Made by a program: the position numbers and the translations under genes. A model generated the notes under the pieces. It did no database searches. It had not been told where the DNA came from and worked only from the letters and a program-made list of their open reading frames with translations. This document shows positions 33,681-40,994 of a stretch of 64,000 bases of DNA, piece after piece. Source of the DNA: Bacilli bacterium (GTDB taxonomy: Bacteria; Bacillota_I; Bacilli_A; RF39; UBA660); NCBI GenBank assembly GCA_028691955.1, contig JAQUYH010000002.1, positions 13,012-77,011 of the forward strand. Reading direction: 5' to 3'. Position 1 is the first letter of the stretch; every line of letters begins with the position of its first letter.

Positions 33681-34370
33681 TTATTTTATTAATTTAACTA
33701 CATATTTATTTAAATAATACATTGCAGTTATTAAAGCGATTAATAATAGATAAATGAAAAACAAATAATAAAATTGACCATATTGATAAAAATAATCAAG
33801 CACTAAATTATTTGGTGATTTTAATAAGTACATAAAGTTTGAATTAGTCAAATAATCAAATATATAAACAATAACAATTCCAACAAAAGAAACTACATAA
33901 TATATAAATAAATCCTTTTTAGTTATATAAAATTTATAATTAATTAACAAATAAATTGTACCCATAATAAGCATAGTATGACTCATTATAAAAAACATTG
34001 CTCTAAGTAACCCTGGATACATATGAGTAGAACCTGGCATTAATATTACAGATAAAGCAGTAGGAATTCCTATTAAAAAATTAAAAACAAATAAATTCCT
34101 GTTTGGTTTAAATAAACAAATAATTAATAAAATCAAATTAATATGACAAACGTGCAAAGAAACAAGATCTAATATATTAAAGTCACCAATATACATATCA
34201 AAAATATATCTTACACTTCTAATTACAATGATAGAAATTACTAAATAAATACTAACTTTTTTCACATTTTTACTTTTTAAAGATAAAGCAATGAAAAATA
34301 AACCAATAGATATAGCAATCAAAATTGATAAAATATGATAAAATCCAAATTGTTCAAAATTATCAATCAT
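33681..34370 (-). CDS. integral membrane protein (YwaF/TIGR02206-like, unknown function)
   Basis: 229 aa, about 7 TM helices, very hydrophobic. Confidence 0.4.
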   Translation of the reverse strand: MIDNFEQFGFYHILSILIAISIGLFFIALSLKSKNVKKVSIYLVISIIVIRSVRYIFDMYIGDFNILDLVSLHVCHINLILLIICLFKPNRNLFVFNFLIGIPTALSVILMPGSTHMYPGLLRAMFFIMSHTMLIMGTIYLLINYKFYITKKDLFIYYVVSFVGIVIVYIFDYLTNSNFMYLLKSPNNLVLDYFYQYGQFYYLFFIYLLLIALITAMYYLNKYVVKLIK

Positions 34371-34371
34371 A

Positions 34372-35139
34372 CTATTTTTCTATTCTTGTTAAAGAAGTAG
34401 GCACACTACCAACAAATACTACTTTACCCTCTTCTACTTTAATACTGTCAAAAGAAGAACCTGTTTTCTCATTATATGTTGCCATCATATTATTAAGTCC
34501 ATCAGCAACTGTGCTTATAGCCTCATCACTATTAATATAATCACTTGAGACAGGAATACCCTGTACTGTAGCACTATCTATTGAAGCAGTCACTTTATTA
34601 TTAATAACAGAACCACTAAATTTAATATATAAATTTAAATTATCAGGAACAAGACCTAAAGCTGGTATTTCTTTTTCAATATCACTTCTTGTAACTTCAC
34701 CATTTAATAACTCTCTTAAAAAATAATCTACATTAACAGACGCTACAGCTTCAACTGTATTATCATTATTTATTCTTATTTGAACATTTTTAACCGCATA
34801 ATATCTTGGCCTATCTTCATTAAAGAAAGCCGTAATTTCTTCACTTGTAAACTCTACATTTACTTTACTAGTTGCTCCATATACATAAGTATAATCATCA
34901 ATACTTTCTCCGGTTGGAACTGCATCTTTAATATAATTTAGCTTATTTAAAATACTCACATAATCGGCCTCACTATACTTAATACCCAAACTTCTAGTCC
35001 AAATAAGACCTGGAAAGATAAAACCTAATGAAACAATAATTAAACCAATAACTAATAAAAATATCACTATCCCTTTTAAAAATTTATGTTTCATTTTTGG
35101 CTTTTCTACAACCTTTACCTCTTCTACAATCTCTTCCAT
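34372..35139 (-). CDS. N-terminally anchored extracytoplasmic protein of unknown function
   Basis: 255 aa. Single TM (FLKGIVIFLLVIGLIIVSLGFIF) then a soluble domain. Start lies 2 nt from the downstream gene. Confidence 0.4.
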   Translation of the reverse strand: MEEIVEEVKVVEKPKMKHKFLKGIVIFLLVIGLIIVSLGFIFPGLIWTRSLGIKYSEADYVSILNKLNYIKDAVPTGESIDDYTYVYGATSKVNVEFTSEEITAFFNEDRPRYYAVKNVQIRINNDNTVEAVASVNVDYFLRELLNGEVTRSDIEKEIPALGLVPDNLNLYIKFSGSVINNKVTASIDSATVQGIPVSSDYINSDEAISTVADGLNNMMATYNEKTGSSFDSIKVEEGKVVFVGSVPTSLTRIEK

Positions 35140-35186
35140 ATAATCCTCCTAACCATATTATATAAATAATATTCTCATTTAGCAAA

Positions 35187-35894
35187 TTACTTAACTCTAT
35201 AACTCAAAAGCATATCTTTATCACTATCAGATACTCTATAACTATCCCTGCATTTACTTATCCCTTTATTAATTGTAAATTTATTCAAATTATGATTTTT
35301 TAAAAAAATTAAAGTTTCATCTCTTCTTTTGATAAATATTTCACACAATAGCCAGGCATTCATCATATTAACATAGTAATCTTCTTCATATTTAAACTCA
35401 TTCATAATATCAAATATTTTTTCAATATAATTATCATTATCTATAAATTCAAATAAAATAAATAAACCAATTCTTCTAACAAATGGTCTCTCATCCTTAA
35501 CATATTCTAAAGATAAATTATAAAATTCTTTTTCATTGTGCTTAACATCAAACGATAACAAGTCCGTTAAAGCCCAACTATCAATCATATTTACATAAAT
35601 TGATAAATATTTTACTTTCAAATCAAAATCTTTTATTTTATTGATTATAAATCCATAAATAGCAACCTCTTCATAACAACTATTTTTATTTAATTTTAGA
35701 AAAGATTCATAATTTCCTTTAAATACTAAACTTGCTATTTTTTTTAAATCTGGAGAAGATAAAGCTAAAACCATTTTATTTGTATTAAGAATTCTTTTTG
35801 TCCAGTCAATTTTATCAACATTACTTAAAGATTTTAAATAAAGAATAAAATCTTCATAACTTTCTTCATCCCAAAACTCTTTTTTTAAATCCAT
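35187..35894 (-). CDS. DNA alkylation repair protein (AlkD/AlkC HEAT-like repeat family)
   Basis: 235 aa all-helical protein. WTKRILNT...MVLALSSPDLKKIA and the overall pattern resemble the AlkD family. Confidence 0.55.
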   Translation of the reverse strand: MDLKKEFWDEESYEDFILYLKSLSNVDKIDWTKRILNTNKMVLALSSPDLKKIASLVFKGNYESFLKLNKNSCYEEVAIYGFIINKIKDFDLKVKYLSIYVNMIDSWALTDLLSFDVKHNEKEFYNLSLEYVKDERPFVRRIGLFILFEFIDNDNYIEKIFDIMNEFKYEEDYYVNMMNAWLLCEIFIKRRDETLIFLKNHNLNKFTINKGISKCRDSYRVSDSDKDMLLSYRVK

Positions 35895-35955
35895 TTATAT
35901 CACCTCTCTTATTATAACAAAAAAACTTAACATTTAAATATTAAGTTTATAATTT

Positions 35956-36828
35956 TTATTCATGGTAATATACATCTACACCTTTAGATATTAAAGCACT
36001 TATTTGTATTCTACTAGCTATTTTAGCATCCAAATTTTCATATATACGTAACTCTTGTAAATTTTCAAATCCCATTATAGCCGATAGATCAGAAACATGG
36101 TTATAAGATAAAACTAAAGTTTCTAAATTTGTATCAGAGCTTAATGAGGAAATATCAGTTACCTGATTACTCTGCAAATTCAAACTTGTTAATTTAATTT
36201 TACTTGCTAAACTACTTATATCTGAAATACTATTATCATTTAAAGATAAAGACTCTAATTCATTTAGATTTTTTAAAACTAAAATATCAGTTACTCCACA
36301 TCTAGATAAAGTCAAATGAGTAAGATCTTCAAAATTTTTAACAAAATCAATTCCTTCAATATCATCTTGAATAAAAGTAAGAGTTCTTAAACTAGGCAAA
36401 CTATTTAAAGTTATTTTATCCTCAATAGATCCATAACTTATAGCTATATAGCTTAGTTCAGGCAACCCATTTAAAGGATTAATTGATTTAAGATTATTAT
36501 ATAATATAGAAATACTAGATAAATTTTTAGCATACTCCAGTCCTGTTAAATCACTTATTTCCCCATACTCATTATTTTTATTAATATTTAATGAATGAAC
36601 CTCAAGCATGTCTGAAGCTAGAATATCACCAGTTGCCTTATCAAGTTTTTCCCTTATCATAGCCTCTAAATTAACATCCTTAAAAACTACTACTTCATCT
36701 AAGTTTTCATTTTCTTCTACAGTTTGACTATCTCCCATATCATTTTCAGTAATAACCTCATCACCACATCCAGTTAAAAAAAATACAACAAAAAATAGTA
36801 GAACAAATTCTTTCCAAAATTTCTTCAA
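35956..36828 (-). CDS. leucine-rich-repeat lipoprotein (internalin-like LRR surface protein)
   Basis: 290 aa. Lipobox FFLTGC, then about 8 tandem 22-residue LRRs (LxxLxLxxNxIxDIxxLxx). Confidence 0.7.
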   Translation of the reverse strand: MKKFWKEFVLLFFVVFFLTGCGDEVITENDMGDSQTVEENENLDEVVVFKDVNLEAMIREKLDKATGDILASDMLEVHSLNINKNNEYGEISDLTGLEYAKNLSSISILYNNLKSINPLNGLPELSYIAISYGSIEDKITLNSLPSLRTLTFIQDDIEGIDFVKNFEDLTHLTLSRCGVTDILVLKNLNELESLSLNDNSISDISSLASKIKLTSLNLQSNQVTDISSLSSDTNLETLVLSYNHVSDLSAIMGFENLQELRIYENLDAKIASRIQISALISKGVDVYYHE

Positions 36829-36884
36829 AAAACATCACCTCTAAAAATATTATATCAAAAAAAATTCGATATTAAAATATCGAA

Positions 36885-38189
36885 TTATCTAACATTGGCT
36901 TCTACTTCAGTAACTTTACCAGTTAGAAGTGCTGGCTCTGGTTCTGATGCAACAGGCATATTACCTGGCATAGTAACACCAAAAGGATTTGTAGCTGGGT
37001 TATTTACATTTGTATCTAAAGATTCATATTTTCCATTTATTCTACTAACAGCCTCTGTTAAATCTCTAGAAAGTTCAGTATTAACCTTTTGTTTTCCTTT
37101 TAATAATTGAAGCTCTTGCGCTAATGATCTATTTTCTTTTTGAACAGCCGCTAATTTCAACAATACATCAGCTTGGCTAGCCTTTATACCAGAAATTTGA
37201 GAATCTAAATTATCTATTCTCTCATTAAAACTAGACGGATCATAAGTAGGAACAACAAGCATATCTTCACCGCTTTTTATGCGTTCTTTATTTTGTGCTA
37301 CAGTATCAGCTACAGTAGCTCTATGCTCTTGCCTACTATCTCTTTTTTCATTTTCAACAGTATTAATTTCTTCTTTTTTAGCACTAATATCTTTACTATA
37401 GTTACTAACTAAGCTTCCATAATTTGATTCTGAAATTGAAAGGTTAGATTGTCTTTCCTCTATTTCAGAAATTCTACTACTAATATCAATTCCTTCATCA
37501 GCTAATTCTTTAAGCTGCTGAATATCTTCACTTAATTGTTGAACATCTTTTACCGCTCTTACATTAAGAACTTCGCCCTGAGTTATTCCCTCTACATTAT
37601 CAAGATTTGGAGTAGTTCCAGTTAATACCCCTCTAACTTTAAGATCTAATTTATTTAATCCTTTAGCTAGACCGTTAAAAAGGCGTACAACATTTGCTTG
37701 TCTATTTAGTGATTTTAAATTTTGAGCCTCTAATTCTTTTTCTAAAGCTCTAATTCTTTCTTCATATTTTGCAGATTTAGAATCTAATCTATCCTTTTTA
37801 TCAGCATAAATTTCAGCGTTTTCAAGGTCTATTTCTGTTTTATCAAAAGATTCCGTAGCAGTATTAAAAGTATTTGCTGCTTCTCTTCTTACACCTTGTT
37901 GTGTGTTCCAATTATTTTGAGCATTAATTACTCTATCCTCTAGCTTTGCACTAAGTCCTTCATTAACTTCATCTTTTCTAGATGCCATACGACCAACCAA
38001 ACTAGCAAATTTGTTAATTAATTCGCCCTTAATTTGACCAGGCTTAAACTTGCCTAAAAAAGAACGACCTTTTTGTTTCTTACTTTCAGCTATTGTCTTC
38101 TTTAACTCTTCTAATTCTGCTTCTTTAGCTACTTTTTGCTCGTCAGTTAAAGCCATTTCTGGATTAAGTGAATCCAATTCACTTTTCAA
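36885..38189 (-). CDS. long coiled-coil protein (possible TelA/YaaN-like). The reading frame continues upstream through a single in-frame TAA to an ATG with a strong SD at 38334-38336
   Basis: 434 aa as listed, predominantly heptad coiled coil. Upstream in the same frame: MPQSSTTPLVGTRLGTMSAATIALMQKMALSRAESQEKKIQN-TAA(38208-38210)-QTRLDSLKSELDSL... The SD AGGAGGG lies 7 nt before the ATG at 38336. No SD precedes the listed internal start. Confidence 0.55.
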   Translation of the reverse strand: MKSELDSLNPEMALTDEQKVAKEAELEELKKTIAESKKQKGRSFLGKFKPGQIKGELINKFASLVGRMASRKDEVNEGLSAKLEDRVINAQNNWNTQQGVRREAANTFNTATESFDKTEIDLENAEIYADKKDRLDSKSAKYEERIRALEKELEAQNLKSLNRQANVVRLFNGLAKGLNKLDLKVRGVLTGTTPNLDNVEGITQGEVLNVRAVKDVQQLSEDIQQLKELADEGIDISSRISEIEERQSNLSISESNYGSLVSNYSKDISAKKEEINTVENEKRDSRQEHRATVADTVAQNKERIKSGEDMLVVPTYDPSSFNERIDNLDSQISGIKASQADVLLKLAAVQKENRSLAQELQLLKGKQKVNTELSRDLTEAVSRINGKYESLDTNVNNPATNPFGVTMPGNMPVASEPEPALLTGKVTEVEANVR

Positions 38190-38337
38190 AGAATCTAATC
38201 TTGTTTGTTAATTTTGTATCTTTTTTTCTTGTGATTCAGCCCTACTTAAAGCCATTTTTTGCATAAGTGCTATAGTGGCAGCACTCATAGTACCTAAACG
38301 TGTCCCTACTAGTGGAGTAGTTGAACTTTGTGGCATA

Positions 38338-38610
38338 TTATTCCCCCTCCTTTGATAATCCATTCAAACTATTAAACATTTCATTAACAAATTCTAAATC
38401 TTTTGCGTCAACGATTTGTTCAAACATAACACTACCATTTACTTCTTTTCTAATTGCCGAAAAAATTTCAGCACTATCTGTTCCTATTTGATCTTCATAT
38501 GCATAAAAAACAAACTCTTTACCATTCTCTTCATTTCCAAATTCAGATAAAATAACACATCTTTTTTCTGTTCCATCTGAAAGCTTCATTTTAAAAACCT
38601 TACTATTCAT
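38338..38610 (-). CDS. DUF1292 / UPF0473 family small acidic protein (YrzB-like)
   Basis: 90 aa. DGTEKRCVILSEFGNEENGKEFVFY pattern typical of DUF1292. Its stop lies 1 nt before the ATG of the downstream coiled-coil gene. Confidence 0.65.
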   Translation of the reverse strand: MNSKVFKMKLSDGTEKRCVILSEFGNEENGKEFVFYAYEDQIGTDSAEIFSAIRKEVNGSVMFEQIVDAKDLEFVNEMFNSLNGLSKEGE

Positions 38611-38680
38611 AAAATCCCTCTTTCTTTTATCACAATTTTACCCTTTTTCCAATAATTTGTCAATTTAAAAAGCAAATATA

Positions 38681-39127
38681 TTATTTTGTATTTACATATA
38701 TTAAATTCTTTTTTATCGCATATGGAACAACTTCATTTTTTAAAGTATTAGATAACAAATTGTAATCATCATCAATTCCAAACCACATAAAAGATTGAAT
38801 TTCATCTGAAGTAAGCAATTCACCTTTTATATCATCATTATATTTAAAAACATGCATATGAATTTTCAAATTAGGATCACTTGTTGCTATTTCTATAAAA
38901 TCCATTACAAATACAAACTTATTTAAATCTAAAATAACATTATTTCCTAATTCTTCAACACATTCTCTATAAGCCGCATCTTTAATACTTTCCCCAACTT
39001 CTACTTTTCCACCAATCATTTGAAAGGTTGATCTTTTTCTTGGCTTATCAATCAACAACTTTCCTTCCCTAAAAAACATAGTTCCTACAACATCCATTAT
39101 TTTCTTTTCCATAAAAACCTCATTCAA
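38681..39127 (-). CDS. NUDIX hydrolase
   Basis: 148 aa. Nudix box GGKVEVGESIKDAAYRECVEELG. Confidence 0.85.
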   Translation of the reverse strand: MNEVFMEKKIMDVVGTMFFREGKLLIDKPRKRSTFQMIGGKVEVGESIKDAAYRECVEELGNNVILDLNKFVFVMDFIEIATSDPNLKIHMHVFKYNDDIKGELLTSDEIQSFMWFGIDDDYNLLSNTLKNEVVPYAIKKNLIYVNTK

Positions 39128-40454: not shown

Positions 40455-40994
40455 ATGACATTACAAGAAATACAGTTTTTACAAAAAATAACTGGAGTTA
40501 AAGGATATGTTGATGGTATGAAAGCTGTTGAGCCAGGATACTTTTATGACAATATTGGAGAATTTGCTCAACTAAAAGCAGAACAAGCAAGATTAGGTGC
40601 CAATAGTCGTCAAGTAGAAGAAATATTACTTTATTTAGGTGATGATATCATAACACGTAAAAAAAGAGAGCAAGAACTTTCACCAGAAGAAATTGCATTT
40701 TATAAAAAAATTGTTGGTATCAATTCATACATAAGAGAAACAAAAACAAATAATCCGAATTGGATTTTTGATAATATGGGTGAAGTAGAAATTCTACTAG
40801 GTGAATTAACTAAGTTAAATACACAAGATCCATATATACTTGCAATTATGCATACAATTACAACTGAAATATTAAAAAAAATTACCCAACTATTAGGACC
40901 AGAAGAATCTATTCAATCAGTAGCCGAGTATCAAGCTAGGTTAACACAATTAGGAATAAAGCCACTCCAACAAAAAGATAAATCTAAAAAATAA
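40455..40994 (+). CDS. hypothetical protein with an internal two-fold sequence repeat
   Basis: 179 aa. Residues ~8-40 (KITGVKGYVDG...YFYDNIGEFAQL) and ~84-116 (KIVGINSYIRE...WIFDNMGEVEIL) are clearly homologous. SD AAGGAGG is 7 nt upstream of the ATG. Confidence 0.5.
   Translation: MTLQEIQFLQKITGVKGYVDGMKAVEPGYFYDNIGEFAQLKAEQARLGANSRQVEEILLYLGDDIITRKKREQELSPEEIAFYKKIVGINSYIRETKTNNPNWIFDNMGEVEILLGELTKLNTQDPYILAIMHTITTEILKKITQLLGPEESIQSVAEYQARLTQLGIKPLQQKDKSKK

Follow-up and report, generated by a model that had tools for sequence, protein, structure and literature searches.

We analysed a 64,000-nucleotide stretch of an uncultured Bacilli genome (contig JAQUYH010000002.1; hereafter the window) and examined a minus-strand gene at 36885-38336 that encodes a long helical, coiled-coil protein. 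This stretch is best read as one 483-codon gene, the second of a two-gene unit, in which codon 43 has become a lineage-specific nonsense codon; the allele is probably young and either a loss-of-function or a strongly hypomorphic one. We assign this reading a probability of about 0.72. The TAA is contained in two assemblies, the relatives covering the position are uninterrupted and no Shine-Dalgarno sequence precedes an internal start, which together argue for a single gene with a premature stop.

Structure of the interrupted gene

The frame opened by the ATG at 38334-38336 is broken by a single in-frame TAA at 38208-38210 (codon 43), and both the coordinates and the 42-codon translation given in a preliminary description of this DNA were exact. 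The minus-strand sequence around the start region is aAAGGAGGgggaataatATG, and the frame from ATG 38336 translates, up to TAA 38210-38208, as MPQSSTTPLVGTRLGTMSAATIALMQKMALSRAESQEKKIQN. This N-terminal fragment of 42 codons and TAA (38208-38336) is homologous to the N-terminus of intact relatives and contains, at codons 8-15 (38292-38315), the sequence PLVGTRLG, recognised in the multiple alignment as the invariant family motif P-x-x-G-x-x-L-G. After TAA 38210-38208 the same frame stays open for 441 codons until TAA 36887-36885; this gene body (36885-38207) is all-helical in the structural model. The listed open reading frame (ORF) of 434 amino acids begins inside it, at TTG 38189.

The start codon aligns with the M-[ED]-Q start found in all relatives. 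It is preceded by the Shine-Dalgarno sequence AAGGAGG (38346-38352, minus strand), 9 nucleotides (nt) 5' of the ATG and within the last codons (K-E-G) of the upstream gene, which encodes a DUF1292-like protein. The window and three related loci (L002, L003 and L004) all have [A/G]AGGAGG exactly 9 nt 5' of the ATG, where it forms part of the final codons of the DUF1292-like gene. Because this spacing is the same in all four inspected loci, we regard ATG 38336 as the orthologous (ancestral) start of the coiled-coil gene. The strong site described earlier is thus present; when counted as AGGAGGG (38351-38345) it lies 8 nt before the ATG and not 7, a trivial difference.

Three codons after the stop are candidates for a restart (38154-38189, minus strand): TTG 38189, TTG 38177 and ATG 38156, located 18, 30 and 51 nt past it. 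As had been remarked for the listed internal start, a Shine-Dalgarno sequence is missing here: the first four internal starts, that is, these three and TTG 38000, did not show even a 4-nt match. Nearly all long ORFs of the window have a 4-7-nt match before one of their first start candidates, and the 441-codon stretch is a conspicuous exception.

Intact relatives and the stop column

An exhaustive HMMER (phmmer) search covering 1.84 billion cluster representatives found three real homologs of 396-534 amino acids beyond the window's own two pieces. Residues 17-491 of P0002 (520 amino acids, E = 2.7e-29) were aligned with residues 6-459 of the query in one stretch across the stop, so the continuity of the frame goes beyond chance. 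Similarly, query residues 5-339 were aligned in one stretch across the stop with P0004 (396 amino acids), and in P0005 (534 amino acids) the N-terminal motif is present in the multiple alignment. Each of the three is a single uninterrupted protein with P-[LV]-[LV]-G-x-x-L-G at its N-terminus, the core of the window's 42-amino-acid piece, and that piece alone scored 27.7 bits against the N-terminus of P0002. We also considered ATG 38363, which opens a 51-amino-acid ORF, as a start in the window. Its product, MDYQRRGNN..., resembled the N-terminus of P0005, MDQAQRNN..., but the codon has no Shine-Dalgarno sequence and does not match the start of the relatives; it was dropped since the 9-nt Shine-Dalgarno spacing marks ATG 38336 as the orthologous start.

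A profile of the DUF1292-like small protein recovered three further distinct loci. The downstream gene is intact at L006 (464 amino acids); L007 and L008 are the same sequence, open for at least 135 codons, well beyond the stop column; at L009 the contig ends at codon 33, short of that column. P8, G11, L14 and G15 are invariant in 7/7 aligned sequences, and no alignment gap occurs between the invariant proline and the stop column, 35 residues further on. The codon at this column is AAA (Lys) in L002, L006 and L007/L008, AAG (Lys) in L003 and TTA (Leu) in L004; AAA and TTA are each one substitution away from TAA. No stop was seen at or near the codon-43 column in any relative covering it, and the most economical history is a single AAA-to-TAA change in the lineage of the window.

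The locus thus has an in-frame stop where intact homologs have a sense codon, with homology on both sides, as in a nonsense pseudogene. Among the options listed in the preliminary description a recent nonsense mutation was the best supported. The alignment to orthologs proposed there points to one protein: all relatives covering the position have the N-terminal 42 amino acids as part of a single protein, and none of them starts internally without this segment. The same homology bears on the suggestion that the 42 codons are an evolved leader peptide, an upstream ORF regulating the downstream gene. A short ORF with a strong Shine-Dalgarno sequence and an ATG, lying directly upstream on the same transcript, would suit such a role. 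However, its 42 amino acids are homologous to an intact N-terminus and include the invariant motif, and the arrangement is unique to the window's genome, which makes a leader peptide scarcely credible.

Other searches added little to this set. A word-indexed protein search with the fused protein returned the window's own protein only; when the family alignment was the query, P0005 was the sole addition. Genome and metagenome contig collections scanned with the fused protein gave no match, the four-sequence family alignment was too divergent for building search patterns, and scans with the DUF1292-like alignment gave either an already known contig or no match.

Presence of the stop codon in two assemblies and its annotation

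The Logan assembly contig of run SRR22315505 was identical to the window across all 5,544 bases compared, including the TAA. Because the two assemblies are identical, an assembler artefact is excluded as the source of the TAA, and to this extent the sequencing error considered in the preliminary description can be set aside. An error at the level of the reads, or a strain polymorphism, still competes with a nonsense mutation: the TAA would then have arisen as an error in the reads or the consensus, or belong to a single strain of a mixed population, and the gene of the predominant genome would be intact. In keeping with this, the source is a metagenome-assembled genome (MAG) and the TAA is the sole lesion in an otherwise perfectly preserved gene, as would be expected of an error. 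On the other hand, the second assembler gives the identical 5.5 kb, the difference is a base substitution rather than an indel in a homopolymer, and consensus substitution errors are rare in short-read assemblies. We therefore consider this explanation unlikely.

In GenBank the locus is annotated as two proteins in the MAG 'Bacilli bacterium'. The 434-amino-acid ORF from TTG 38189 is MDD3187081.1 (PHD02_01245), a hypothetical protein; the 42-amino-acid ORF is MDD3187082.1, annotated as a separate hypothetical protein; and the upstream gene is MDD3187083.1, annotated as a DUF1292 domain protein. The alignments indicate that the two-protein annotation probably results from the stop rather than from the presence of two real genes, and MDD3187082.1 and MDD3187081.1 should be flagged as one disrupted gene.

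Translation around codon 43

If one substitution, most probably AAA (Lys) to TAA, changed codon 43, ribosomes loading at the strong Shine-Dalgarno sequence would stop there and release a 42-amino-acid peptide carrying the family's invariant motif. The 440-residue body would be made at a low level only, by an inefficient restart without Shine-Dalgarno sequence at TTG 38189 or ATG 38156 or, alternatively, by rare near-cognate readthrough of UAA-C. The locus would then be a pseudogene at an early stage, and may represent a strain variant that was fixed in the MAG. Such an event is of an ordinary kind and leaves the current understanding of translation unchallenged.

Restarts after early nonsense codons are a classical bacterial phenomenon, and the interruption may also be tolerated or even used. 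In that case the cell would make a free 42-amino-acid PLxGxxLG peptide, perhaps contacting the DUF1292-like partner, and a smaller amount of the body by Shine-Dalgarno-independent restart 18-51 nt further on, through termination-reinitiation at TTG 38189 or ATG 38156; the result would be two polypeptides, as in a gene fission in progress, or the body alone. In support of this, the body contains no further stop and has retained 23 of the 31 columns conserved in the family after the stop, and the start codons 18-51 nt beyond the stop lie in an A-rich, unstructured stretch. Against a functional split, none of the internal starts has a Shine-Dalgarno sequence although almost all genes in the genome have one, and the arrangement was seen in none of the six other loci (at L009 the contig ends at codon 33). 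The stop also falls within what is predicted to be a continuous helix.

The distance to the nearest start argues in the same direction. Termination-reinitiation in E. coli and Haloferax becomes steeply less efficient as the distance grows (Huber et al. 2023, PMC10666635). At a spacing of 38 nt, 80-90% or all of the reinitiation was lost, and the authors summarise that about 20 nt are enough to remove nearly all coupling. The window resembles these systems in that a stop is followed by in-frame TTG, TTG and ATG codons 18, 30 and 51 nt on, and in that the DUF1292-like and helical genes are truly coupled at close range, with 1 nt between them here and a 20-23-nt overlap in relatives. The internal stop, in contrast, is not conserved, has neither an overlap nor a Shine-Dalgarno sequence, and is spaced from the next start at a distance where coupling was nearly lost in the tested systems. 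The suggestion that the 42-amino-acid peptide is a genuine unit translationally coupled to the body thus found no support, as the split is not conserved and the nearest start, 18 nt past the stop, is without a Shine-Dalgarno sequence. Both a functional split into two products and a tolerated interruption seem to us rather improbable; if true, the locus would show gene fission under way, or an early nonsense codon that tunes stoichiometry, in an unannotated family.

A full-length protein could also arise by programmed or regulatory readthrough of the UAA, or in a code with TAA as a sense codon. The frame continuity is perfect, and the stop is followed by C, a context enriched at read-through stops in Salmonella pseudogenes, where readthrough products were of low abundance and came mostly from UAG (Feng et al. 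2022, PMC9122581). However, UAA is the least leaky stop, the readthrough in that study concerned mainly UAG, and the stop is missing from all relatives covering the column. No stimulatory structure was found either, as the 171 nt around the stop (38260-38090) fold like shuffled sequence (z = -0.36). As in recoding systems (selenocysteine at UGA, pyrrolysine at UAG, leaky viral stops) there is an in-frame stop with a continuous frame on both sides, but here the stop is UAA, is not conserved and has no downstream RNA element, and the window shows no sign of a code change.

The long minus-strand ORFs of the window (n = 67) end with TAA in 42 cases, including the gene immediately upstream, with TAG in 17 and with TGA in 8. 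Recoding of TAA is excluded because TAA is the main terminator, and together with the CCA anticodon of tRNA-Trp this use of TAA shows that the window follows the standard bacterial code. Its five tRNA genes do not include a suppressor tRNA, and neighbouring ORFs that share a frame are ordinary adjacent genes with Shine-Dalgarno sequences of their own. Stop-codon readthrough was among the options of the preliminary description; as a programmed event it is not supported, since the UAA is unconserved and has no RNA structure, and we regard readthrough and recoding as very improbable.

A parallel to a young nonsense allele is provided by nonsense pseudogenes, some of them translated 'pseudo-pseudogenes' (PMC9122581). 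The window shares with them a single stop in an otherwise intact ORF that is uninterrupted in relatives. It keeps its promoter and Shine-Dalgarno sequence, so transcription and N-terminal translation should continue, and since C follows the stop, low-level readthrough is conceivable. The translated cases of that study had mostly UAG, whereas the window has UAA.

State of the gene body

Of the alignment columns in which the four other full-length family members agree, the window keeps 6/7 before the stop and 23/31 after it. Stop-creating changes make up 5.5% of the possible point substitutions in the body, equal to the average of the long ORFs in the window. Given that no second stop has appeared, neutral drift of the body would amount to fewer than about 53 substitutions, or about 4%, at the 95% level. 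Because the body shows no such further decay, the lesion should be young, a strain variant, or tolerated with the body still under selection.

Several points weigh against a young loss-of-function allele. Ongoing selection on a product made by restart would explain the intact 441-codon body and its retained residues equally well. The MAG assembly and the Logan assembly may rest on the same reads, and a read-level error (a systematic base call) or a polymorphism between majority and minority strains may lie behind the TAA. The data on reinitiation distance come from E. coli and Haloferax and not from low-GC Bacilli. Finally, no relative of more than 50% identity, against which the mutation could be dated or selection on the body estimated (as the ratio of nonsynonymous to synonymous substitution rates, dN/dS), was found in any collection searched.

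The two-gene unit

The first gene of the unit (38338-38610, minus strand) encodes the DUF1292-like protein of 90 amino acids and ends with TAA 38340-38338, 1 nt before the ATG of the helical gene. The tight operon coupling proposed in the preliminary description was confirmed, and in the relatives it is even tighter: at the homolog loci a DUF1292-like gene of 97-99 amino acids lies upstream and overlaps the next start by 20-23 nt. A DUF1292-like gene was found directly upstream at every locus.

Relative to its orthologs, the DUF1292-like gene of the window lacks 7-9 codons and ends 1 nt before the ATG in place of the 20-23-nt overlap (window 38338-38340, compared with L002 5001-5020, L003 1631-1650 and L004 5001-5023). 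The tail that is absent from its product (DNGTSTN, KNGTIRE or DKDGSSTEE in the orthologs) is poorly conserved.

A promoter-like sequence, TTGACA-17 nt-TAAAAT (38635-38663, minus strand), precedes the unit; with 11/12 matches it is the best site in the region. By eye, AATTGACA-17 nt-TATAAT was seen in L002, L003 and L004 at the same position relative to the DUF1292-like gene. Behind the helical gene lies an A+T-rich hairpin of 8-10 bp resembling an intrinsic terminator, UUCGAUAU-UUUA-AUAUCGAA followed by U8 (36857-36884, minus strand; -8.2 kcal/mol, z = -2.43). This hairpin was missed by a consensus scan, which demands three G-C pairs; such a scan probably under-reports terminators in a genome of 28% G+C. 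The putative promoter, the DUF1292-like gene, the helical gene and the putative terminator form what we regard as a self-contained conserved bicistron. It occupies 38338-38610 and 36885-38336 in the window, and 4727-6563 in L002, 1357-2821 in L003, 4724-6605 in L004 and 3783-5451 in L006.

The DUF1292-like protein of the window, like the small Firmicutes proteins of the DUF1292 family (PF06949), passes the Pfam gathering score (24.8 bits, cut-off 24), and its aligned orthologs match DUF1292 at E <= 0.01 (4/4). It shares 46-50% identity with the upstream proteins of L002-L004. The precomputed Pfam column of the database lists no DUF1292 hit for the homologs. Compared with other DUF1292 proteins the partner represents a divergent subfamily that is always paired with a coiled-coil gene, whereas canonical DUF1292 genes such as B. 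subtilis yrzB presumably adjoin ruvX-like and DUF965 genes. A search of the literature on DUF1292 returned incidental mentions only, and the bicistron offers a small handle on the function of these proteins. Short gene overlaps are enriched among subunits of complexes (PMC10666635), and the tight overlap in the relatives fits the idea that the DUF1292-like and helical proteins may act together.

The helical protein and its family

The family is marked by PLxGxxLG within roughly the first 25 residues, by LGxF...IK near residue 95, LDxxxR near residue 231 and [NS]PF at the C-terminus, and by the obligatory upstream DUF1292-like partner. In the window protein the invariant residues are L94, G95, F97, I102, K103, D231, R235, P451 and F452. 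The window gene thus has the N-terminal motif, the internal motifs and the upstream partner, and what it lacks is the uninterrupted ORF of about 400-530 codons, owing to the TAA at codon 43. Among the roughly 15 billion proteins of the collection, the family was found at only seven distinct loci, the window included, and this extreme rarity of the gene pair is the only aspect that we find mildly unusual.

No entry for the family was found in Pfam, NCBIfam, PADLOC or PHROGs, where only sub-threshold coiled-coil matches appeared, and a sequence-profile search of the Protein Data Bank (PDB) with the helical protein returned nothing. The AlphaFold model is all-helical and of low confidence, with a predicted local distance difference test score (pLDDT) of 64 and a predicted template modelling score (pTM) of 0.33. 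In this model the stop falls in the middle of a helix spanning residues 19-56, with a pLDDT of about 78-84 over residues 31-50. A Foldseek comparison of the low-confidence model with the PDB gave no match at E <= 0.001 (best E = 0.026).

The window protein is helical and heptad-rich, as are SMC arms, JetC and chemoreceptor hairpins. Its matches to long coiled-coil proteins are weak and compositional (SMC_prok_B, 24.6 bits where the cut-off is 567; JetC, E = 2e-5). It has no ATPase head or other domain, and as the matches lie far below the family thresholds we claim no homology. The protein is assigned only to its own unnamed family.

Genomic neighbourhood

The window has 28% G+C and resembles an ordinary, densely packed segment of a bacterial chromosome. 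Partial synteny was observed around the gene pair, at 33681-36828 and 38681-39127 in the window, 1-2674 in L004 and 351-3647 in L006. NUDIX, DNA_alkylation and TMEM164-family genes recur near the pair, together with an unannotated gene of about 252-255 amino acids. The partial synteny suggests that all loci with the gene pair come from one uncultured low-GC lineage.

Contig CAYURI010000012.1 of GCA_964447275.1 (L002 / L005) is labelled 'uncultured Muribaculaceae bacterium' (Bacteroidota). It has 27% G+C, a gene for an LtaS-type lipoteichoic-acid synthase and the Bacilli-type gene pair, and we doubt either its taxonomic label or its binning.

The next gene downstream of the helical gene (35956-36828, minus strand) encodes a leucine-rich-repeat protein of 290 amino acids whose N-terminus resembles a lipoprotein signal (...FFLTGCGDE...). 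The start codon is a TTG behind GAGGTGA, and an extended -10-like sequence, TGaTATAAT, lies between this gene and the terminator. A 179-amino-acid ORF at 40455-40994, among the very few plus-strand genes of the window, has no Pfam match and contains an internal duplication (...FLQKITGVKGYVDGMK... / ...FYKKIVGINSYIRETK...).

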